From contig CANFCK010000003.1 in assembly GCA_947445035.1 (NCBI GenBank), positions 168,218 through 232,217 of the forward strand: a stretch of 64,000 nucleotides of DNA. Reading direction: 5' to 3'. Shown here piece by piece: positions 1 through 51,073 of the stretch. Origin of the DNA: Deltaproteobacteria bacterium (GTDB taxonomy: Bacteria > Myxococcota_A > UBA796 > SXON01). How positions within the stretch are numbered: the stretch's first letter is position 1; each line of letters opens with the position of its first letter. The notes beneath the pieces are model-generated. The model saw only the letters and a list, made by a program, of their open reading frames with translations, was not told the DNA's origin and searched no databases. The position numbers were made by a program, and so were the translations under genes.

Positions 1-1050
1 GTGTTCACGTCCTTGCTCCAGGAAGGAACCAGCTGGGTCGTCGGGCTCGACCGCCAGGGCGACTACGTTTGGTGGTGGCAGTCCGACGGGAACATCGAGG
101 TCGACTCCGTGCACGCCGCCGCCGACGGCCAGGGGCTGATCTTCACCCACTTTCGCCAGGTCGAACGCCCCTACGCCGGAGTCGTCAGCGTCCGGTTCGA
201 CGGATCGGCATGGGCGACCACCTGGGCGGCCGACGGCCACCACGACGCGGTGCAACTCCCCGGCGGCGAGATCGCCTACATCGCCGCGCAGCGCGCGGAC
301 GCCGTCCCACTGGAGGACGGAACCACGGCGGACCTCGCCAGTGACCGGCTGCAGGTCGTCGCCCAAGGTGCGACGAGCGCCGACAGTCCTGAAACCGTGT
401 TCAGCTTTCTCGACGACTACGCACACCAACCCTGGCGGGTCTGCTCCCATTTTGACGACGAGACCCCAGGCGGCGGTCTGAACTACACCCACGCCAACTC
501 GGTCATGGTCGATCCCGACCGCGACAGCCTGCTCATTCAATCGAAGAACATCGACGCGCTGATCGCCGTGGACCGCGAGTCGGGAGCCATCCTGTGGCAG
601 GCCGGCGGGCGATACGGCGACGTGACCGACGTGGACGGCGACGTCATCCCCGATGGCGAGGACACATGGATGGTGGAGGGACCGAACCGGACGTGGTGGA
701 GTCACGGACACATGTCCCACTTCTGGGGAGACGGCTTCGCGATGTTCGACAACGGCTACCACCATCCGGATCAGGTGTCGCGCGCGGTGGCCTATGCTCT
801 CGATCAGGACGCGCGGACCCTCGAAAAGGTGTGGGAGTTCCGCTCCGAGACCGACAGCTTCAATCCCCTGCTTGGCGACGTACGCCGGCTCAGCAGCGGC
901 AACTACTTGGTTTCTTGGACGATCCAGGGCATGATCACGGAGGTCACGGCGGACATGCGCGTGGTCTGGCGGGCCTCGGCCTCACTCGGCGCCGCAACCG
1001 GACGCTTGGTCTACGTGACGGACGTCTACGGCCGAACACCCCCCCAATAA
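1..1050 (+). CDS. Arylsulfotransferase (ASST)-like beta-propeller protein, 5' partial
   Basis: Motifs NYTHANS, HGHMSH, MFDNG, GDVRRLSSGNYLVSW typical of ASST-domain proteins; ORF is open at the window edge. Confidence 0.75.
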   Translation: MFTSLLQEGTSWVVGLDRQGDYVWWWQSDGNIEVDSVHAAADGQGLIFTHFRQVERPYAGVVSVRFDGSAWATTWAADGHHDAVQLPGGEIAYIAAQRADAVPLEDGTTADLASDRLQVVAQGATSADSPETVFSFLDDYAHQPWRVCSHFDDETPGGGLNYTHANSVMVDPDRDSLLIQSKNIDALIAVDRESGAILWQAGGRYGDVTDVDGDVIPDGEDTWMVEGPNRTWWSHGHMSHFWGDGFAMFDNGYHHPDQVSRAVAYALDQDARTLEKVWEFRSETDSFNPLLGDVRRLSSGNYLVSWTIQGMITEVTADMRVVWRASASLGAATGRLVYVTDVYGRTPPQ

Positions 1051-26373: not shown

Positions 26374-26407
26374 CGCCTTCGGACGCGGCCCGCGCTACCC
26401 TGTGTCC

Positions 26408-27418
26408 ATGCTGGTCTTCTTTCTTGCGTGCGAAACCGCCACCTTGGACATCGGAGGACACGACTCTCACGACTCTGACGTCGACACGTCGGACACCAGC
26501 GACACCGGCGACAGCGCCGAAACCGGCGACACCGACACGGGCGTGCCGCCCATCGAATTCGACTGCGACGCGCTTCCAGAGGCGGACGACACCGAGATGA
26601 CAGGCGACGCCGGCGGCCCGGGACCCCGCGCCTACCACGACGTGGTCTTCGACGATGACGGCCACCTGATCGGCAACGATCTCAGCTCGCTCTTGAGCGC
26701 AACCTATGAGGGCGGGGTGACGCCGATGGTGCCCGGGACCGGCATGCTCCAGGGCATGGATCGGCTGCCTGACGGCGACCTCGTCGTGGTGGATGACACC
26801 AACGGCACCTTGGTCCGCGTCTCGCCGGAGGGCGCCACCTCGATCATCACCACCGGCATGTACGGCACCTACGGGGTGACCACCGGGCCCGACGGCATGC
26901 TCTACGCGGCGCCTGTCTACCAGGGCGATGGCAGCGTCGTCATCGCCCGGGTCGACCCCGAAACCGGAGACACCACCGAGTGGGCGAAACTAAGCCGCGT
27001 GCACACGCCGCGCATCGTCGTCTTCAACCTCGACAGCACCATCGCCTACGTCGCGACCATTGGCACCGGCACCGTCTTCCAGATTCCTGTGGACGACAAC
27101 CTCGACCCCACCGGCCAGGCGGAAGACTACGCGACCGGCATCGGCTCGTGGATGGACGGCCTGGGCATCGATGCGTGTGGCAACCTGTACGTAGCGGAGT
27201 ACGCCTCATCGGGGCTGTACCGGGTGCGGACCGACTCCAGCGTAGAAAGCCTCGTGCGCAAGCGCCCGACCCCGTACGGACACGGTCTGGAGTGGGGCAG
27301 CGGCATCGGCGGTTGGCGCACCGACGCGCTGTACCAGCCCCAGCCCTACGACAACAACACCGTGCGGGAGGTGGTGATCGGCGTCCCGTCGGGGGCCGCA
27401 TACCGCACCTGGCGGTGA
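26408..27418 (+). CDS. SMP-30/gluconolactonase-like beta-propeller lipoprotein
   Basis: MLVFFLAC lipobox, DT linker, DGLGIDACGNLYVAE, GPDGMLY. Confidence 0.75.
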   Translation: MLVFFLACETATLDIGGHDSHDSDVDTSDTSDTGDSAETGDTDTGVPPIEFDCDALPEADDTEMTGDAGGPGPRAYHDVVFDDDGHLIGNDLSSLLSATYEGGVTPMVPGTGMLQGMDRLPDGDLVVVDDTNGTLVRVSPEGATSIITTGMYGTYGVTTGPDGMLYAAPVYQGDGSVVIARVDPETGDTTEWAKLSRVHTPRIVVFNLDSTIAYVATIGTGTVFQIPVDDNLDPTGQAEDYATGIGSWMDGLGIDACGNLYVAEYASSGLYRVRTDSSVESLVRKRPTPYGHGLEWGSGIGGWRTDALYQPQPYDNNTVREVVIGVPSGAAYRTWR

Positions 27419-29401: not shown

Positions 29402-30874
29402 TCACGGCGCGGCCGGCGCCCCCGAAAAATCCCCGTGGGGAAACACGCCGACCTTCCTACCCGATTCGGTGCCCGCCAGGCCGCAGTTGGCGATGGTGCC
29501 GTACACGTTGCCGGTGAAGTCGGTGTAGGCGCAAAAGTCGTCGGACGTGGCGTGAAGGCGGGCGGGCCATGAGGCGTCGAGGCCGCCTTGATCGTAGGGC
29601 TCGTAGTCCCACTGCTGGAAGGCGTCCGCTTCGTCGCAGATCGCCGTGATGACCGTCCACGGGCCGATCCAGGAGTCGGTGTGGCTCAGACAGGCACCGT
29701 TGACGACGCTCTTGTAGGCGCTGTGCCCACCGACCGAGAGCACCTCCCACTGTTGCGACGGGTCTGTCGAAATGCACGAGGTCGTCGAAGCGACAACGCC
29801 GCCCGACTCGGCCACCAGGCATCGCCCGTCCGACTTGAACTGGATGAGCGAGAAGGCTGGAGCCGTATCGCAGAGGTCGCCCACCCCGTCGCCATCTCCG
29901 TCCAGTTGGAAGGGATCGAAGACCTCGGGACAGACGTCCACGTCGTCCGCGATGCCGTCGCCATCGGTATCGCTGCCGGCGTCGATCGGCGGGTCGCCGG
30001 GCTCTGGACAGATCGCGCCGTGACAGGTCCAGTCAGGGTAATCGTAGCGGATCATCGCTTCGCCCGGCGCGCACACCTCGCCAGGAACGGGCCCGGACGC
30101 GCAGCCCCCTTCGAACCAACCGCCAGCGCGCGCCGCGTCGGTGATCACGATGGCGGACTTCACCTTCCCGAGGAAGTCACCTGAGACGGTGAGGGTCCCA
30201 CCTTCATCGCCGTTGCCAGAGAAATCGGTGTCTTGTTTGAGCACCCCGTCCAGGACCAACTCGATCTCCAGCGGCAGCACCGCCGCCTCGTCCTGCCAGT
30301 AGGGATCGACGGGGTCGTGGACCTCGACGGTGGTGCTGGCTCGACAACTTGAGTAGGTGAACTGGCTGATGGCCCGCAGCCCGTCGAGGGAAACGTTCCA
30401 CTCCACCGTACCATCGCCGCAATCGGCGCTCCAACTGCCCGTGCCCGAGGGGTTCTCGCAGCCGTTCATGCGACAGGTCAGCTCGTCCTTGATGGCGACG
30501 AACGCACGGACCAGTTCGTCGTTCTGCCAGAGGATCACGGGCCCGTCCACCGCCGCGCAGTCCGCATCCTCCACCAGGTAGGAGGCCTGCTCCAGGTCGG
30601 CCTCGCCCTCCCCCCAACGGATGCTCACCGCGTGAAACCCACAGGCGAGCGGCACGTGTCGTTCGGCATCGAGCGTCGCGACACAGGTGTCGCCGAAGCC
30701 AGGGTCCCCAACGTCCACCGCGACGCACACCACCGCATCGTCCAGCCCTACGACATCGACGCCAGAGGACTCATCGGTCAGGGTAGTCCCCGAGGGCGGG
30801 TCGAAGTGTGTGGCAGAGGGGTCCAGACTGCTCTGGGTGGTGCAAGCAGCGAGCAGGAGGGGGAGCGAACGCAT
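29402..30874 (-). CDS. Cys-rich lipoprotein with thrombospondin type-3 Ca-binding repeat and ricin-B-like lectin domain
   Basis: Lipobox LLAAC; DTDGDGIADDVDVCP...DGDGDGVGDLCD; GRCL...QQW and ACL...QQW repeats. Confidence 0.8.
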   Translation of the reverse strand: MRSLPLLLAACTTQSSLDPSATHFDPPSGTTLTDESSGVDVVGLDDAVVCVAVDVGDPGFGDTCVATLDAERHVPLACGFHAVSIRWGEGEADLEQASYLVEDADCAAVDGPVILWQNDELVRAFVAIKDELTCRMNGCENPSGTGSWSADCGDGTVEWNVSLDGLRAISQFTYSSCRASTTVEVHDPVDPYWQDEAAVLPLEIELVLDGVLKQDTDFSGNGDEGGTLTVSGDFLGKVKSAIVITDAARAGGWFEGGCASGPVPGEVCAPGEAMIRYDYPDWTCHGAICPEPGDPPIDAGSDTDGDGIADDVDVCPEVFDPFQLDGDGDGVGDLCDTAPAFSLIQFKSDGRCLVAESGGVVASTTSCISTDPSQQWEVLSVGGHSAYKSVVNGACLSHTDSWIGPWTVITAICDEADAFQQWDYEPYDQGGLDASWPARLHATSDDFCAYTDFTGNVYGTIANCGLAGTESGRKVGVFPHGDFSGAPAAP

Positions 30875-30931
30875 CGCGGGGGAGTGTAGCCCCACGCCGG
30901 ACGGCTCCCCCCGACCGGTAGTCACTCTCAC

Positions 30932-30960
30932 AAGACATTCGCGTCCGGCCCGGCTACTGT
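30932..30960 (+). promoter_or_regulatory. Sigma70-type promoter for the leader peptide / ATP-grasp gene
   Basis: AAGACA (30932-30937), 17 nt, TACTGT (30955-30960), 6 nt, GTG 30967. Confidence 0.6.
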
Positions 30961-30966
30961 TCAACT

Positions 30967-31053
30967 GTGACCCGCCTCGCCATCGCCACCAACGTCTTGT
31001 CCGTGGACACCTGTTGTTGTCCGCGTTCAACCGTCCGGTTGGCCCTGGCCTGA
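30967..31053 (+). CDS. Putative leaderless poly-cysteine leader peptide MTRLAIATNVLSVDTCCCPRSTVRLALA (28 aa)
   Basis: GTG...TGA in frame; TGT-TGT-TGT at 31012-31020; start sits at the predicted TSS. Confidence 0.65.
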   Translation: MTRLAIATNVLSVDTCCCPRSTVRLALA

Positions 31054-31099
31054 CCTCGCGCCGCGAGGCGCCACCCCACCGGATGCCCCTAAGGCATCC
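31034..31099 (+). promoter_or_regulatory. Attenuator-like alternative RNA structures
   Basis: Hairpins CCTCGC-gcc-GCGAGG (31054-31068) and GGATGCC-cctaa-GGCATCC (31081-31099); TCCGGT (31034-31039) can pair with ACCGGA (31078-31083), which overlaps the second hairpin. Confidence 0.5.
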
Positions 31100-31130
31100 A
31101 CCTTTCGGGCACCAATAACCTGGAGCTCGA

Positions 31131-32081
31131 ATGTCCCTTGTTCACGTTCTCTACGAAAACTCTGCATGGCTGCCCCCACTCGCCCGAGCGCTCGACGCGC
31201 GCGGCTTGCCGTGGGTCGCCCACTTCGCCGCCGAGGGCGCCTTCGAGGTCGAGGCCGACCCCGCGCCCGGCGTCTGGCTCAACCGGATGAGCCCCTCGGC
31301 CCACACCCGCGGTCACGCGGGCGGCATCCACTACGTCCGTGAGTGGCTTGGTGTGCTCGAGGAGCGCGGGTCGCCGGTGATCAACGGCGCGCACGCCTTT
31401 GCCCTGGAGGTCTCGAAGGTCCGGCAGCACGCCGCCCTCCGCGCCGCGGGAATCCTCACGCCACGCACCATCGCCGTCATCGGCCGCGACCGGCTACTCG
31501 AGGCCTCCCGGAGCTTCGAGGCCCCGTTCCTCACCAAGCACAACCAAGGTGGCAAAGGGCTCGGGGTGCAACTTTTCCGCTCTCACGACGCCTTCGATGC
31601 CTGGGTGAAAAGCGACACCGAGCTGCCGATGGATGGGGTCACCCTGCTTCAGCAGTACATCGAGCCACCGTCCGGCGCGATCACCCGCGTGGAGATCGTG
31701 GATGGACGGTTCCTTTTCGCGATGCGCTCCGCCACCGACGGCGGTTTCGAGTTGTGCCCGGCCGACAGTTGCCAGGTCGGCGACGCTTTCTGCCCCACGT
31801 CCGGCTCGTCGCGCTTCGCGGTTGAGGACATCGGGGCCGACGACCCCCTCGTCACCGCCTACCTCCGCTTCTGCGAGGCCCACCGCATCGATGTTGCAGG
31901 CATCGAGTACGTGACCGGTGCCGACGGCCGCCGCTACACCTACGACATCAACATGAACACCAACTACAACTCCCAGGTGGAGCGCGAAGCCGGCGTCGAC
32001 GGCATGGGCGCCATCGCCGAGCTGTGCGCCCGGCGGTTAGGCCTCGCCGCCAACGAGGTGGAGGGCTTCGGGGCGGCGTAG
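31131..32081 (+). CDS. RimK-like ATP-grasp ligase (alpha-L-glutamate ligase family)
   Basis: NRMSPSAHTRGH, VING, KHNQGGKGLGV, LLQQYI, FELCPADSC, YDINMNTNYN; GGAG SD. Confidence 0.88.
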   Translation: MSLVHVLYENSAWLPPLARALDARGLPWVAHFAAEGAFEVEADPAPGVWLNRMSPSAHTRGHAGGIHYVREWLGVLEERGSPVINGAHAFALEVSKVRQHAALRAAGILTPRTIAVIGRDRLLEASRSFEAPFLTKHNQGGKGLGVQLFRSHDAFDAWVKSDTELPMDGVTLLQQYIEPPSGAITRVEIVDGRFLFAMRSATDGGFELCPADSCQVGDAFCPTSGSSRFAVEDIGADDPLVTAYLRFCEAHRIDVAGIEYVTGADGRRYTYDINMNTNYNSQVEREAGVDGMGAIAELCARRLGLAANEVEGFGAA

Positions 32082-32323: not shown

Positions 32324-33574
32324 CTACGGCCCGATGAGCCTCTCGGCCATCACCGCCACCATCTCGTGCTCCACACTGTCGCCGTCGAGCTCCCAGGTCA
32401 TCACGCCCCCGAGCCCGAGGGCGTCGATCAGGTCGAGCTTCTCGCCCAGGCTCTCGGGGTCCTCGTAGCTGATGAACAAGCCCGTCTCTTCGCTGTAGAG
32501 GGTGGGAACGCGGGCGCTCGGATGCAAACGACGGGTGTACCGGGTGTCGCCGATGTAGTTTTCGACGAGGTCGTCGTAGTCGAACATTCCGGCCTCCCAG
32601 GTGCCCTCGCTCGTCGCGCGACCGGCCTGGAACAGCCCGCCGTCCGTGCTGCCGACGCCGCCCCACCCACGCCCATACAGCGGGACGCCCACCACGAGCT
32701 GGTCGGCGGAAACACCCTCGTCCAACCAGCGCTGTACCGAGGCGTCAACGTTGTAGGTCTCGGCGTGCACCGCCGTGGATCCATCGGGCATGTAGAGCGC
32801 GTTGTGGAGATTGGTCGTCGGCTCCCAGCCGCCGTAGAAGTCATAGGTCATCAGGTTGATCCAGTCGACTTCGGCGGCAATTCCGGCGGGCTCGAGGTTG
32901 TCCACCTTGTCGGACCCCGCGGGCGCGGCGATCGTGAGGAGCGAGGCCGGCGCCCGACTGTCAAGTTCGCTACGGACCGCACGGAGCAGCAGCGTAAAGT
33001 TCTCGGTGTCCGCCGCCGCCCCTTCGGTCAGCCCGCCGGTGACCGGGTACTCCCAATCGATGTCGATTCCGTCAAAACCGTACTCGAGCATGAAATCCAC
33101 GCACGACGTCGCGAACCGCCCCCGGCCAGCCGCGGTAGCGGCAACCTCGGGAAAGTCAGCCGACAACGTCCAACCGCCGACGCTGATCAGGGTTTTCAGG
33201 TGGGGGTACGCCGCCTTGATCTCGACCAATTGGGCGAAGTTGCCACCCCGAAGCTCGAGGGCAGCCCAGGGGTCGTAGACGGCACACTCGCCGTCCGTGA
33301 TGGTGGCGAACGCGTAGTTGACATGGGTCAGCTGCGCCGCCGGGATGTCGGCGACGCGGTAATTGCGGTCGTAGACGCCCCACTCCACGAAGTAGCCGAT
33401 GACCCGGCGCTCCACGAGGGTCCCGGTGTTGGTGTCACTATCGGTGTCGGTGTCGATGTTGGCCACGCAGCGGTCGCCCTCGAGGTGCGTGCCGCGCCCG
33501 CACGAAACGTCAACGCTGTCTTCGGTGCACCCGACGGCCAAGCCTGAGAGGGCGATCACAGAGAGAGCGCGCAT
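32324..33574 (-). CDS. GH18 chitinase, lipoprotein
   Basis: GYFVEW, THVNYAF, SVGGWT, FDGIDIDWEYP, NLMTYDF, GVPLYGRGW, GGVMTWEL; lipobox LAVGC. Confidence 0.95.
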   Translation of the reverse strand: MRALSVIALSGLAVGCTEDSVDVSCGRGTHLEGDRCVANIDTDTDSDTNTGTLVERRVIGYFVEWGVYDRNYRVADIPAAQLTHVNYAFATITDGECAVYDPWAALELRGGNFAQLVEIKAAYPHLKTLISVGGWTLSADFPEVAATAAGRGRFATSCVDFMLEYGFDGIDIDWEYPVTGGLTEGAAADTENFTLLLRAVRSELDSRAPASLLTIAAPAGSDKVDNLEPAGIAAEVDWINLMTYDFYGGWEPTTNLHNALYMPDGSTAVHAETYNVDASVQRWLDEGVSADQLVVGVPLYGRGWGGVGSTDGGLFQAGRATSEGTWEAGMFDYDDLVENYIGDTRYTRRLHPSARVPTLYSEETGLFISYEDPESLGEKLDLIDALGLGGVMTWELDGDSVEHEMVAVMAERLIGP

Positions 33575-33630
33575 GGAAGAACCTTGGGCTCCGCTAGCAT
33601 ACGCCGATCCCGGCTGAGCGGCGACTCCCC

Positions 33631-35664
33631 CTACAACCAGCGTGCGAACCACCCCGCCACTTGCCGCATCCGTTCGATGCGCCGGTCGATACGCCCCACT
33701 CGCGACAGGCTGTGGCTTTCTTCGGGGTACAACACAAGGGCCGTGGGAACGCCCTTTCGGAGCAGCGTCTCGTAGAGGGCATAGGCCTGCGAGGCGCTGC
33801 ACCGGAGGTCGCTCTCAGCGTGCATCACCAGGAAAGGAATCGTGACCCGTTCCGCATCCTTGAGTAGGGAGAAATCCCGCCACGGTGCCGGGTCCAACCA
33901 CGGCAGCCCGAAACCGAAGGTCTCCGGAAGAATGTAAGAGTAGTCACCATCCGTTGCGGCCAGGGCCCAATCGTAGAGCCCCCGGTCAGCGACGGCGGCT
34001 TTGAACCGGGTGGTGTGTTCGGCCAGGTACAGCGTCATGAACCCACCGTAGCTGCCCCCTGTGACCCCAATCCGCTGGGCGTCCACTTCGGGGCGCGCTG
34101 CCATCGCCTCCACGAAGGCAAGAAAGTCACGCGTCTCGACGGGCCCCCAGTGGGGCGAGATCGCCGATGCATGGGCCTCGCCGAAGCCGTGACTGCCGCG
34201 GGGATTTCCCCAGGTCACGGCGAAGCCCTCGTCGGCCAGGCGCTGCATCTCGAAGAACACCCGCGCCCCGTAGGCGGCCCACGGGCCCCCATGGATGTAG
34301 AGAATCCCGGGCGCGGGAACGGAGGCGCCGCGTGGCGATAAATACCAAGCCTGAGTGGTGACCCCATCGACCACACACTCAAGCCGTTCCGGGGCGCGTA
34401 ACGCGACGTCCGCAGCCAAGGCATCGTTGTGAGTGGTACGGTTGGCGACCCTTCCATGCAAGATGTGCGCGACCTCGACGAACGCGCCGGTCGTGCCATG
34501 CAACCCAGCGAGCCCCCCAGCGACGATCACGGGACAACAGAACGACTCGAATTCGGGTGTCAGATACTCCGTGGATCCGTCCAGCCCGAACCGAACGAGA
34601 CGTGTCGCGTCACGATCTTGCACGGAACACACAACAGCGCCGCCCACCCACAACGGCCTCCAGGGCACCAACGCGCACCCCGCCAGATCATCGAGTCCAA
34701 GGTCCATGACCGGGCGATCCAGGGTCGGTCCGAGGAGCCGGCCTTCGCCGGTGGCCAACTCGGTCACCCCTACCCGTGTGTTCCGCCAGCCCCACAGATC
34801 GTCCGGCGCCTGCCAAGACCAGGCCACAAAACGCCCGTCGGGTGAGACCGAGGCGTTGTCGAGCAGGCCATCGACAGCCGAAAGGCGTGTGGCCGATCCA
34901 TCTGAGACGTTGACGCGAACGAGCTCGTTGCGGGTGAACTCGCGGTCACCGCGGGGAAGCTCGGCGCGGGTCGCGACCACCGCCTGACCGTCCGGCGTCC
35001 ACGACGGGGCGCCATAGGCGTAGGGTCCGCACGTGAGCCGCCGGGCGGCGCCGGTCTCGATGTCGACAAGCCAAAGGTGGGGGAGGAAACCACCCTCCCA
35101 GCCGCCGCCATCGACGCGGGTGTGCGGCCTTGCGTAGACCCTCGCCACCGGAATGGTCGGTGCTGCTTTCCACTCCGGCTCACCCGCTGAGGCCCCGGGA
35201 AAGGCCTCGGGCCCGTCATTGCCAGCCGGCTGCCCCCACCGCTCAGCCGCCAGCACCATCGGCTGGTCCGGGCCCGCCGAAGGGGTGAACCCCACCACGA
35301 ACGTCCGTCCGTCAGGGGAAAGCGCCCCCATCCCAAGGGTTCCGTGGCCCAGGTTGGTGACTCGGCGCGCGTCGCCACCCTCGGCGTCCAGGCGCCAGAG
35401 CTGCCCGCCGCGCTCGCGGTCGGAGACGAAGAGCACGTATCGGCCGCCCGGCTCGGCGATCGGAGTCCGGTCGGCGTTTTCCCCCTGGGTAAGACGCACC
35501 GGCGCCGTGCCATCGAGGGCCGACGCGTAGAGCGCGGTGCGGTACCGTTTGCCATCGGCACCCACACGCTTGACTACGTACACGACCCGATCGCCCCATC
35601 GGCACGGGGCGGACGGAATCAGCACGCGCGCAAGATCGGACGCTTCGAAACGGCCGCTGGCCAT
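33631..35664 (-). CDS. S9 family peptidase (acylaminoacyl/dipeptidyl aminopeptidase)
   Basis: SPDG propeller repeats, YIHGGP, NPRGS, GGSYGG, ESDLRC, YPEESH. Confidence 0.93.
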   Translation of the reverse strand: MASGRFEASDLARVLIPSAPCRWGDRVVYVVKRVGADGKRYRTALYASALDGTAPVRLTQGENADRTPIAEPGGRYVLFVSDRERGGQLWRLDAEGGDARRVTNLGHGTLGMGALSPDGRTFVVGFTPSAGPDQPMVLAAERWGQPAGNDGPEAFPGASAGEPEWKAAPTIPVARVYARPHTRVDGGGWEGGFLPHLWLVDIETGAARRLTCGPYAYGAPSWTPDGQAVVATRAELPRGDREFTRNELVRVNVSDGSATRLSAVDGLLDNASVSPDGRFVAWSWQAPDDLWGWRNTRVGVTELATGEGRLLGPTLDRPVMDLGLDDLAGCALVPWRPLWVGGAVVCSVQDRDATRLVRFGLDGSTEYLTPEFESFCCPVIVAGGLAGLHGTTGAFVEVAHILHGRVANRTTHNDALAADVALRAPERLECVVDGVTTQAWYLSPRGASVPAPGILYIHGGPWAAYGARVFFEMQRLADEGFAVTWGNPRGSHGFGEAHASAISPHWGPVETRDFLAFVEAMAARPEVDAQRIGVTGGSYGGFMTLYLAEHTTRFKAAVADRGLYDWALAATDGDYSYILPETFGFGLPWLDPAPWRDFSLLKDAERVTIPFLVMHAESDLRCSASQAYALYETLLRKGVPTALVLYPEESHSLSRVGRIDRRIERMRQVAGWFARWL

Positions 35665-49711: not shown

Positions 49712-51073
49712 ATGGCCGGCATCTACGACAGCATCCTCGACGCGATTGGCAACACCCCGCTGGTGCGGCTGCACAACGTCGGGAAGGACACCGGCTGCGA
49801 GCTCTTGGTCAAGTGCGAATACCTCAACGCGGGCGGGTCGGTGAAGGACCGCATCGGCCGGCGCATGGTGCTGGAAGCGGAGAAGTCCGGTAGGATCAAG
49901 CCGGGAGATACCCTGATCGAGCCGACCAGCGGCAACACCGGCATCGGCATGGCGCTGGCCGCAGCGGTGCGCGGATACCGCATGGTCATCACCATGCCCG
50001 AGAAGATGAGCCGCGAAAAGCAGGTGGTGCTCGAGGCGCTGGGCGCGGAGATCATCCGCACCCCGACCGAGGCGGCCTGGGATGCACCGGAGAGTCACAT
50101 CGGCGTGGCGATCCATCTCCAAAAACTTCTTCCAAACGCACATATCCTCGATCAGTATGCCAACCCCGACAACCCGATGGCCCACTATGAAGGCACCGGC
50201 GCCGAGATCGTGGAGCAGACCGGCGGACGCTTGGACTACCTCGTGCTCACCGCCGGCACCGGCGGGACGCTGACCGGCACCGCACGCCGCGTGAAAGAGG
50301 CCATTCCCGGCGTGAAGATCGTGGGCGTCGACCCCGTCGGCTCGATCCTTGCGGGTCCCAGTGCCATCGGCAGCTACAAGATCGAGGGCATCGGGTACGA
50401 CTTCATCCCCAACGTGCTCGACGCTGGGCTGGTAGACGAGTGGATCAAGACCGAGGATGGCCCTAGCTTTCGCATGGCGCGGCGCCTGATCCGCAAGGAG
50501 GGCCTTTTGGTCGGCGGCAGTACCGGCTCAGCGGTCTGGGCGGCCGTGGAGGTGGCAAAGCGGGTGGGTCCGGGAAAGCGGATCGTGACGCTCGCGGCCG
50601 ACGGCGTCCGCAACTACATGACCAAGTTCCTCGACGACGGCTGGATGCGCCAGAACGGCTTCACCGAGCGGAGCTGGGAGTCGGCGAGCGTGGCGGAGCT
50701 TTTGCGCTATCTCCCCCGGCGCGAGCTCATCTCGGCCGACGCCGGGCTCACGGTCGCCGAGGCGGTGCGCACGATGAAGGCGCATGGGATCAGCCAACTA
50801 CCCGTACTCGAGGAGGGGCGGCTCATCGGCATCCTAACCGAGTCCGACGTGCTCGGAAAGCTGGTGGACGGGCGCGCCAACCTCAACAGTCACGTGGCCG
50901 AAGTGATGTTCCGCAACGTGCGGACGGTCCAGGACAGCGACGACGCCGCGACTCTGACCCGCGTTTTCGCGGACGGCATGGCCGCGGTGGTCGTGGACGA
51001 CAATCGCATCGTGATCGGCCTGTTGACCAAGCTCGATCTGGTCGACTACCTCACCAAGCGGCCCGCTACCTGA
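49712..51073 (+). CDS. cbs: Cystathionine beta-synthase with C-terminal CBS domains
   Basis: IGNTPLV, GGSVKDRI, EPTSGNTG, GTGGT, YKIEGIGYDFIP, RNYMTKFLDD, CBS pair. Confidence 0.9.
   Translation: MAGIYDSILDAIGNTPLVRLHNVGKDTGCELLVKCEYLNAGGSVKDRIGRRMVLEAEKSGRIKPGDTLIEPTSGNTGIGMALAAAVRGYRMVITMPEKMSREKQVVLEALGAEIIRTPTEAAWDAPESHIGVAIHLQKLLPNAHILDQYANPDNPMAHYEGTGAEIVEQTGGRLDYLVLTAGTGGTLTGTARRVKEAIPGVKIVGVDPVGSILAGPSAIGSYKIEGIGYDFIPNVLDAGLVDEWIKTEDGPSFRMARRLIRKEGLLVGGSTGSAVWAAVEVAKRVGPGKRIVTLAADGVRNYMTKFLDDGWMRQNGFTERSWESASVAELLRYLPRRELISADAGLTVAEAVRTMKAHGISQLPVLEEGRLIGILTESDVLGKLVDGRANLNSHVAEVMFRNVRTVQDSDDAATLTRVFADGMAAVVVDDNRIVIGLLTKLDLVDYLTKRPAT

Follow-up and report, generated by a model that had tools for sequence, protein, structure and literature searches.

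The question raised by this locus is whether a short open reading frame (sORF) with a run of Cys codons reports the supply of cysteine to the gene behind it. The locus lies in a 64,000-nt stretch of contig CANFCK010000003.1, recorded as that of a Deltaproteobacteria bacterium (the whole stretch is referred to below as the window), in which an intergenic gap of 256 bp (30875-31130) precedes the ATG, at 31131, of a gene for a RimK/LysX-like ATP-grasp ligase. The initial annotation proposed that this gap encodes a leaderless leader peptide with three consecutive Cys codons, which acts as a cysteine-sensing attenuator of the ligase gene. Every element that it listed for the gap (AAGACA, 17 nt, TACTGT, 6 nt, GTG and a frame of 28 codons at 30967-31053) is present in the sequence. 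Taken alone, the Cys run is not beyond chance in a scan of 64 kb; it is the recurrence of such a run in orthologous loci that takes the locus beyond chance. The element family is nearly certainly a real and conserved cis-regulatory element of a known class, found here in new lineages and in front of a new target. As judged from sequence comparison and predicted RNA structure, the copy in the window is probably a working Cys-sensing leader-peptide attenuator.

Recurrence before orthologous ATP-grasp genes

Relatives of the ligase were gathered from 61 related genomes (29 with a match), from GTDB genome contigs (alignment A1; 586 confirmed, 80 kept) and from metagenome contigs (511 confirmed, 80 kept). 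Loci were scored as positive when a stop-terminated forward frame with at least three clustered Cys occurs upstream of the enzyme's N-terminal HVLYEN anchor, which is conserved, at a distance of 125-285 nt. In the de-duplicated genome set, such a Cys sORF is found on the forward strand in 37 of 92 loci and on the reverse strand in 4 of 92; the independent metagenome set gives 42/65 and 4/65, respectively. In the merged non-redundant set, which requires at least 200 nt of upstream sequence, 74 of 152 loci contain the sORF. The conserved Cys-rich frame that the initial annotation had suggested looking for upstream of orthologues is thus found, and a series of codons for the amino acid that would be sensed, CCC in the window, is kept across orthologous loci. 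The runs comprise 3-12 Cys residues (for example, CCCCCCCC, CCCCCCC, CCCLCCCCCAC, CCHNCCTCCCACC and CCCMCCCACCTCCCVC), and 233 of their 356 Cys codons are TGT, as opposed to 123 TGC. Between clades, the leader peptides share Cys alone, and their C-termini vary (..LALA, ..RSDL, ..AGVR, ..CCCCCCCC and ..PVVP).

A promoter of the form TTGnnn-16..18-TAnnnn ends 5-9 nt before an in-frame ATG or GTG of the sORF in 41 of the 74 positive loci, compared with 0-6/74 at anchors displaced by +/-10, 20 or 30 nt. Among the loci with a single possible start (n = 19), a strict TAnnnT stands at a gap of 5-9 nt in five, and in 0-1 at each of six control offsets. As judged by eye, the sORFs of L042, L049 and L051 are led by a Shine-Dalgarno (SD) sequence. 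In 26/74 positive loci, the spacer that follows the sORF stop contains a terminator, defined as a stem with 5 or more pairs and, directly after it, 5 or more T within 8 nt. The corresponding counts are 2/74 for the opposite strand of these spacers and 4/78 for sORF-less loci, where the 140 nt that precede the gene were scanned. L120 and L121 contain two tandem poly-Cys sORFs before one ATP-grasp gene, 282 and 140-146 nt before the anchor, with the runs CCCCC then CCCCCC in one case and CCCC then CCCCC in the other.

The same comparison bears on the possibility that the Cys-rich peptide is itself the product, either as a substrate or carrier of the ligase, resembling peptides that are made by the ribosome and modified after translation (RiPPs), or as a small metal- or redox-active peptide that is co-expressed with it. 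One subgroup (L027, L127, L129, L133, L136, L148, L152 and L190) does keep the peptide tail after the Cys run (..WTPVRLPVVP; ..CCCWTPVRLPVVP), as a functional peptide might. However, 78 of the 152 orthologous loci have no such peptide, nothing but Cys is kept between clades, where the C-termini differ, and the terminators located between the sORF and the enzyme gene in 26/74 loci would uncouple a substrate from its enzyme. Unlike the situation in graspetide biosynthesis, the putative precursor is therefore not a constant companion of the ligase, its sequences agree in Cys only, and terminators separate the two. In addition, most of the sORFs start at the 5' end of the transcript, like sensory leader ORFs, and a peptide product is considered improbable. 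In the same subgroup, pairing is predicted between the U-tract of the terminator and the SD region of the ATP-grasp gene, and it is a matter of speculation that the proline-rich end of the tail could be a termination-pause motif. Covariation analysis of one leader subgroup (8 sequences) found a double change in 1/43 pairs, conservation being too high to inform.

The distribution of the sORF was mapped on a quick maximum-likelihood (ML) tree of 91 proteins, from which the truncated L027 was excluded. The trait is clustered, since 17 changes are needed versus a mean of 27.8 in shuffles, and 0/500 shuffles are as low. The carriers are labelled in their records as Myxococcota, Rhodothermota (Salinibacteraceae), Acidobacteriota and Nitrospirota; several of these labels look unreliable. 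Several points from this survey weigh against a sensory role, in particular for the window. The sORF is absent from more than half of the orthologous loci (the 78/152 mentioned above), and the trait is also scattered, as supported branches force at least 11 changes. The window is the sole carrier in its 18-row clade (98 SH-aLRT), and all 17 of its nearest relatives are without the sORF. Furthermore, the nucleotide sequence of the window leader is similar to that of L114 only, and homology of the window copy with the leaders of other clades is thus putative. Because the window is the sole carrier in its clade and 17 changes are needed on the tree, the copy in the window could be a recent gain. 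The element has been either frequently lost or gained repeatedly.

The lack of sORFs in the 17 closest relatives and the dissimilarity to other leaders are what would be seen if the window sORF were a chance open frame, with the gene being expressed, from this promoter or a different one, without cysteine sensing and the recurrence being real in other clades only. Runs of at least three TGY codons are indeed common in this genome of 68% GC: 407 occur in any frame on both strands (approximately 3.9e-5 per nt per strand), which gives an expectation of approximately 1% per 256-nt gap and strand. A scan of the whole genome speaks on the other side of this question. Home-made gene calls (4519 genes, 92.5% coverage) provided 3134 upstream regions, which contain 51 sORFs with CC or more, and only one of these 51 sORFs, that of the window, has a TAnnnT box 5-10 nt before an in-frame ATG or GTG. 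Together with the evidence on spacing, conservation, transcription and structure given below, this abutting box renders a chance frame unlikely. The upstream regions yielded six matches with at least three Cys, one of which is a regex artefact, leaving five real ones. Three of the others were rejected as members of a Cys regulon after inspection by eye because each is either antisense to the start of a divergent gene or within a gene that was mis-called, and one further match, C13, reads CCGC. No wider Cys-leader regulon was found among these upstream regions, and the other 50 sORFs with CC or more are without an abutting -10 box, which leaves the proposed sensing at this locus without the backing of a regulon. 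The window leader has no similarity elsewhere in its own genome.

In L002-L015, which belong to the sORF-less sister clade of the window gene, G.TAnnnn followed by about 6 nt stands before the ATP-grasp ATG, as if the gene itself were leaderless. Over all sORF-less loci, a TA hexamer at a gap of 5-9 nt is found in 30/78, versus 13-20 at control offsets, a weak excess, and the full promoter is found in 5/78. Records titled Klebsiella pneumoniae, Enterobacteriaceae or Poseidoniales archaeon (L031, L039, L041, L051, L060 and others) sit in Myxococcota-like protein clades, and the taxonomic labels of these metagenome-assembled genome (MAG) records look wrong.

Promoter, leader peptide and transcripts in the window

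The gap is bounded on its other side by a divergent minus-strand gene with an ATG at 30874, in frame with the ORF 29402..31030, and with a lipoprotein-like N-terminus; all of the features described in the following are on the + strand. Pairwise alignment with L114, whose enzyme shows 98% protein identity to that of the window, delimits a promoter block at 30897-30966, in which 8/70 positions differ; the similarity begins at approximately 30897, and the sequences are unrelated further upstream. Within this block, the -35-like hexamer AAGACA (30932-30937), which is the same in L114, lies 17 nt before the -10 hexamer TACTGT (30955-30960), and the latter lies 6 nt before the GTG at 30967. The leaderless layout claimed in the initial annotation is supported by the 41/74 relatives in which a promoter abuts the sORF start, whereas its -35 assignment in the window was missed by a strict sigma-70 scan, the output of which does not include AAGACA at 30932-30937. 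Two details of the promoter argue against the assignment: the -35 hexamer of the window is not TTG, and the -10 box in L114 is TACTAC rather than TAnnnT, which makes the -10 assignment in the window a little weaker.

The leader ORF (30967-31053; VTRLAIATNVLSVDTCCCPRSTVRLALA) extends over 28 codons from GTG to the TGA at 31051-31053, and its translation is V/MTRLAIATNVLSVDTCCCPRSTVRLALA up to the stop. Its three consecutive Cys codons, TGT-TGT-TGT at 31012-31020, form the proposed stall site. TGT is the minority Cys codon in this genome, as had been assumed (2228 TGT versus 7030 TGC in confident gene calls; TGT = 24%). The Cys run is located 119 nt before the ATG of the ATP-grasp gene, compared with approximately 115-165 nt in other clades (first locus set), which speaks against a chance frame. 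The stop codon is separated from the ATG by 77 nt of untranslated, C-rich spacer, which contains the SD sequence GGAG at 31122-31125, downstream of the alternative pairings discussed below, where the initial annotation had placed it. The ATP-grasp gene (31131-32081, 316 aa) is monocistronic because the next gene on its 3' side, a GH18 chitinase gene (32324-33802), converges on it. The sORF is co-oriented with and upstream of the gene that it would control, and single RNA contigs from two runs (X6 and X12) span both, although contigs are no proof of a single transcript.

The comparison with L114, whose leader homologue is VTRPANATTVLFVDTCCCPRSTVRLALA, reveals an uneven pattern of change. In the 5' part of the sORF (30967-31005), 6/39 positions differ, four of them non-synonymously, and 4 of the first 14 residues are changed despite the 98% identical enzyme, which is not what would be expected of a peptide product. 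In the region composed of the Cys run and the downstream RNA (31006-31130), 2/125 positions differ, versus 22/313 third codon positions of the gene (Fisher p = 0.02, for one sequence pair). The Cys run and the RNA that follows are thus conserved below the synonymous rate, in opposition to a chance frame. Because the Cys run and the downstream RNA are conserved while the N-terminal half of the peptide drifts, constraint on the former and freedom of the latter would suit a sensor, not a functional peptide.

Transcripts were sought in assembled metatranscriptomes (Logan contigs). Of 24 runs listed, six are RNA libraries with part of the stretch, and four of them, from three studies, were examined (X6, X8, X12 and X18); runs X19-X24 share few or none of their sequence words with it. 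The contigs of the four runs start at 30982 (X6), 30978 (X8), 30993 (X12) and 30984 (X18), which places their ends within the sORF by 11-26 nt but still upstream of the Cys codons, and in all four runs they pass through the sORF and the spacer into the gene, reaching 31943 in X6 and 32055 in X12. There is no cover at 30892-30965 in X6, X8 and X18, and the divergent gene is covered in X8 by separate pieces of low depth. The contigs fit a transcription start at or near 30967, as expected in the initial annotation, and all four runs exclude a start downstream of 31020. The inclusion of the sORF in the RNA contigs is evidence against a chance frame; the presence of the sORF and the gene on the same contigs is also in accord with a co-expressed peptide product. 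The value of the contigs as support for attenuation is reduced by the fact that they carry no strand, exact ends or level, and the one depth figure per contig is unusable as an attenuation readout. Moreover, the end of the X6 contig is an adapter junction at 30982, 15 nt inside the sORF, and DNA may occur in RNA libraries.

RNA folding and the candidate switch

The leader RNA (30967-31150) has a predicted folding energy of -71.4 kcal/mol (z = -4.23; 0/200 shuffles as stable), and such unusual structure is a further argument against a chance frame. The initial annotation described mutually exclusive pairings, in which 31034-31039 pairs with 31078-31083 or a hairpin forms at 31081-31099. The two hexamers (TCCGGT at 31034-31039 and ACCGGA at 31078-31083) are complementary, and the alternative was reproduced in silico, with -15.8 kcal/mol for the extended duplex of regions 2 and 3 (31032-31042/31075-31085) versus -10.9 kcal/mol for the hairpin of regions 3 and 4 (31081-31099). 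Region 2 (31032-31042), the 3' part of the sORF, is predicted to pair in free RNA with sORF codons 7-10 (to 31043); its alternative partner, which would create an antiterminator, is the C-rich region 3 (31075-31085). Region 3 overlaps the 5' arm of the 3:4 hairpin, GGATGCC-CCTAA-GGCATCC, a candidate attenuator of 7 bp that is identical in L114. A third hairpin (31104-31131; -11.8 kcal/mol) encloses the GGAG and the A of the ATG, with P = 0.93 in all ribosome states. At its pair 31114:31121, the window has A-U, X18 has G-U and X12 has G-C, which constitutes one compensatory pair between strains. In the minimum free energy (MFE) fold, the Cys codons are located in a local hairpin, paired with GGACA just upstream.

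The strong predicted structure, the compensatory pair in the hairpin at the ribosome-binding site (RBS) and the fact that conservation is highest in the RNA following the Cys run would also suit a structured RNA that itself senses a ligand or protein and acts as the switch, in which case the short ORF would be tolerated and unneeded. However, Rfam gives nothing meaningful for the window at 30700-31300, where no family emerges beyond noise at E <= 10, and no leader family at gathering scores for 20 positive loci, which contain one tRNA. In 40 sORF-negative loci, likewise, no leader family reaches the gathering score, with tRNA and a c-di-GMP riboswitch found elsewhere in the loci. In addition, the RNA sequence is not kept across clades, but the Cys run, frame, stop and abutting promoter are, and an aptamer would not explain this combination. 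Direct sensing by the RNA is therefore very improbable.

For a sensory leader peptide, the position of the ribosome would decide between the two pairings. From the usual footprint sizes, we infer that a ribosome with a Cys codon in the A site has its edge at approximately 31024-31033 and leaves region 2 free, and that a ribosome at the stop covers approximately 31036-31066. When the 5' part behind the Cys-stalled ribosome is also masked, P(3:4) is 0.31-0.69, compared with 0.95-1.0 for a ribosome at the stop. Folding with the ribosome-covered segment masked, which was the check suggested in the initial annotation, gives this shift only in that form. When the footprint is masked alone and pairing across the ribosome is allowed, the 3:4 hairpin has P ~1.0 in every state, and RBS access stays constant. 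Several results of the folding analysis thus weigh against a switch in the window. It is visible under one masking model only, the predicted SD hairpin persists in every ribosome state, and RBS access is predicted at an unpaired probability of 0.39 in all three ribosome states. The sequence after the hairpin at 31081-31099, ACCTTTCGGG (ACCUUUCGGG), contains just three U and no proper U-tract, as had been noted from the start, and a terminator scan of the window leader found 0 terminators. The missing U-tract would also be expected of a chance frame.

In the relatives, each transcript was folded up to the hairpin with a ribosome mask placed either on the first Cys codon or on the stop. The hairpin is favored by >0.2 with the ribosome at the stop in 10/30 loci, and the opposite is seen in 2/30, the rest being stable both ways. 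RBS access with a Cys-stalled ribosome, as predicted for 33 loci, goes up in 7, down in 4 and is the same in 22, which does not favor control of translation. A translational model of the mycobacterial Ms5788A type, in which Cys codons pair with the SD sequence, was rejected, as the Cys codons are not paired with the SD sequence and RBS access is mostly constant across masks. Because terminators and ribosome-dependent hairpins are found while RBS access is mostly unchanged, the family-wide mechanism appears to be classical transcription attenuation, which in relatives would plainly proceed by intrinsic termination (26/74). The initial annotation had expected translational or Rho-dependent control on account of the missing U-tract. 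Against the translational part of this expectation stand an RBS access that ribosome masks mostly do not change and the intrinsic terminators of the relatives. Because the tail of the hairpin in the window is U-poor, termination there would be weakly intrinsic or Rho-dependent, the latter in line with the initial annotation.

In the proposed mechanism, the 28-codon leader peptide would report the supply of Cys-tRNA(Cys) to the ATP-grasp transcript. Transcription from AAGACA-17-TACTGT would start at or next to the GTG at 30967, leading to leaderless translation. When cysteine is plentiful, the ribosome would reach the UGA at 31051-31053 and cover region 2 (31032-31042); the hairpin at 31081-31099 and the SD hairpin at 31104-31131 would form, and little full-length translatable message would be produced. 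The shut-off may be caused by weak intrinsic termination, by Rho-dependent termination in the 77-nt C-rich spacer, or by both. When cysteine is scarce, the ribosome would stall at the UGU codons (31012-31020), and region 2 would be free to pair with region 3 (31075-31085). The hairpin at 31081-31099 would then be blocked, and RNA polymerase would read into the gene. For the window, we infer the stalling, the direction of the response and the controlled step (termination or translation).

To our knowledge, Cys-codon leader ORFs have been demonstrated in mycobacteria only, and for a few other groups, predictions place them in front of cysS or cys genes. Attenuators of trp, his and leu genes in Proteobacteria are built from 1:2, 2:3 and 3:4 helices, with regulatory codons a few codons before the stop and a terminator that forms when the ribosome is at the stop. 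The candidate switch resembles them in its alternative-helix arrangement and in the position of the regulatory codons near the stop; it differs in that their leader ORFs are SD-led, whereas those described here are mostly leaderless, and in that the 3:4 hairpin of the window has no U-tract.

Polycysteine leaderless sORFs that confer Cys-responsive translational attenuation were reported in M. smegmatis (Canestrari et al. 2020; bioRxiv 10.1101/834739; Mol Microbiol 114:93). According to the available part of that report, members of the Ms5788A class are unannotated short ORFs at the 5' end of the transcript, co-oriented with and upstream of the controlled genes, with at least two to three Cys codons toward the 3' end and with ribosome pausing at Cys as the proposed sensor, all of which would apply to the layout described here. 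In Ms5788A, however, the Cys tract pairs with the SD sequence of the next gene, resulting in translational control, whereas the pairing predicted for the Cys codons here is local. In mycobacteria, the controlled genes form annotated operons of cysteine metabolism, in contrast to the one orphan ATP-grasp gene in another phylum; the terms "ATP-grasp" and "ligase" have 0 occurrences in the accessible main text of Canestrari 2020.

Cys leaders are also described for cysteinyl-tRNA synthetase genes: in Rhodobacterales, cysS is preceded by the uORFC-8-2 motif (PMC8632094), and in Deinococcus deserti, it is preceded by a leaderless leader of 10 aa with Cys-Cys (de Groot et al. 2014; PMC4007540). As presented in the accessible sections of these papers, both consist of an upstream ORF (uORF) with tandem Cys, followed by a stem and a U run, and are interpreted as ribosome-mediated transcription attenuators, and the Deinococcus leader shares the leaderless layout. 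Their target is cysteinyl-tRNA synthetase, and their Cys codons number two and are mostly UGC, whereas the leaders described here have 3-12 Cys, mostly UGU, and an ATP-grasp target. A counterpart to the terminator-less layout of the window is provided by predicted Cys leader peptides before actinobacterial cys and cbs genes (Seliverstov et al. 2005; PMC1262725), which, in the accessible part of that study, have Cys runs near the stop and no obvious terminator, with Rho-dependent termination being proposed. Unlike the window leader, they are confined there to Actinobacteria and to known cysteine genes. No paper that links a Cys leader to an ATP-grasp gene or to Myxococcota was found in the searched literature, which largely excludes subscription journals, and the best 15 of 175 matches on ATP-grasp enzymes and sulfur or cysteine starvation contain no joint mention. 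The occurrence of the same logic in Myxococcota, and under the record labels Rhodothermota, Acidobacteriota and Nitrospirota, implies that attenuation by leaderless sORFs is no actinobacterial peculiarity, because runs of up to 12 Cys, leaderless-type promoters and textbook terminators occur elsewhere.

The ATP-grasp family and its neighbors

The protein encoded in the window is a weak match to Pfam RimK PF08443 (24.9 bits, cut-off 21). In NCBIfam, it scores below the thresholds of rimK_fam TIGR00768 (55.5 vs 143.4 bits) and LysX TIGR02144 (33.5 vs 275.6 bits) and lies outside these curated subfamilies. Its ATP-grasp fold and Pfam RimK domain are supported by PF08443, an AlphaFold2 (AF2) model and Foldseek. 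The model has a pLDDT of 86.7 and a pTM of 0.88, with the loop CPxDxC..CP (residues 210-225) at pLDDT <50. The CPADxC motif pointed out in the initial annotation is present as CPADSC, and C209, P210, D212, C214, C221 and P222 are invariant in 26 orthologues. The best Foldseek matches are ArgX, LysX, RimK, Ddl, DcsG and PsnB, and a sequence search of the PDB returned 5i47 alone. The closest of these folds belong to enzymes whose substrates are the termini of proteins or peptides (LysW for ArgX/LysX, RpsF for RimK, and a precursor peptide for PsnB), which is a point in favor of the peptide product considered above. The family shares its fold with LysX/ArgX and RimK (PDB 3vpb, 3vpd, 5k2m and 5zct; Foldseek E ~5e-18, TM 0.72 on the query) but differs from them in its 14-19% identity, in the extra invariant CPxDxC..CP loop and in having no LysW-like or conserved partner gene nearby. 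More than 6600 relatives at E <= 1e-20 were found among 8000 candidates scored; their database names are generic, none being specific. All-against-all clustering of neighboring ORFs in 92 loci revealed no conserved operon partner.

The regulation and the occasional operon partners point to cysteine or sulfur supply, and they are leads, not evidence of the reaction. The downstream gene is cysM-like in L073 and L092, at distances of 24 and 95 nt (scores of 358 and 339 bits, which do not reach the equivalog cut-off), and in L068, a gene for a cobA/cysG-type (siroheme) methyltransferase overlaps the stop (298.5 bits, above the cut-off). An SfnG/SsuD-like monooxygenase gene, scanned in L076, has homologues in one blastp cluster, which are located downstream in four Salinibacteraceae loci overall. 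A sulfur-related next gene on the same strand thus occurs in three lineages; against this, the seventeen other downstream ORFs scanned are sulfur-unrelated or without a family. Of the 61 related genomes, nine have a CysE-like match over the full length (E <= 1e-45) and 27 have the ATP-grasp protein (E <= 1e-80), the latter being present in 26/52 genomes without CysE versus 1/9 with CysE (G052 only), although kin are not independent. G000, the genome of the window, lacks any CysE-like match below E = 1e-5. Of the 61 genomes, 60 contain CysK/CysM/CBS-type PALP enzymes. Leads toward a role in cysteine supply, though no proof of it, are that the ATP-grasp gene is the sole Cys-leader gene in its genome, the sulfur-type operon partners and the anticorrelation with CysE. 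It is conceivable, and put forward here as a tentative proposal, that the family is an undescribed cysteine-supply enzyme that is switched on at Cys-tRNA shortage, for example in a CysE-independent route or in sulfur mobilization, with activation of a carboxylate like that by LysX/ArgX. The leader serves as a free functional label, which marks an orphan RimK/LysX-like family as needed at cysteine shortage. It also provides an experimental handle on the function of this family and possibly on cysteine acquisition in bacteria without CysE.

G000 contains three PALP genes of the CysK/CysM/CBS type, including one in the window at 49736-50623 (+), 18 kb downstream of the ATP-grasp gene, in a 472-aa frame (321.8 bits to TIGR01136). 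An NHL/SGL beta-propeller protein of approximately 400 aa is encoded within 3 kb of the ATP-grasp gene in 16/92 loci, including L002, L082 and L023, on either side and strand; the NHL/SGL propeller of the window, a weak SGL match, is located at 26402-27415 (+), 3.7 kb upstream. In L086, a c-di-GMP-I-GGC riboswitch (1689-1764, +; 70.7 bits, gathering score 59) is located just after the ATP-grasp gene.

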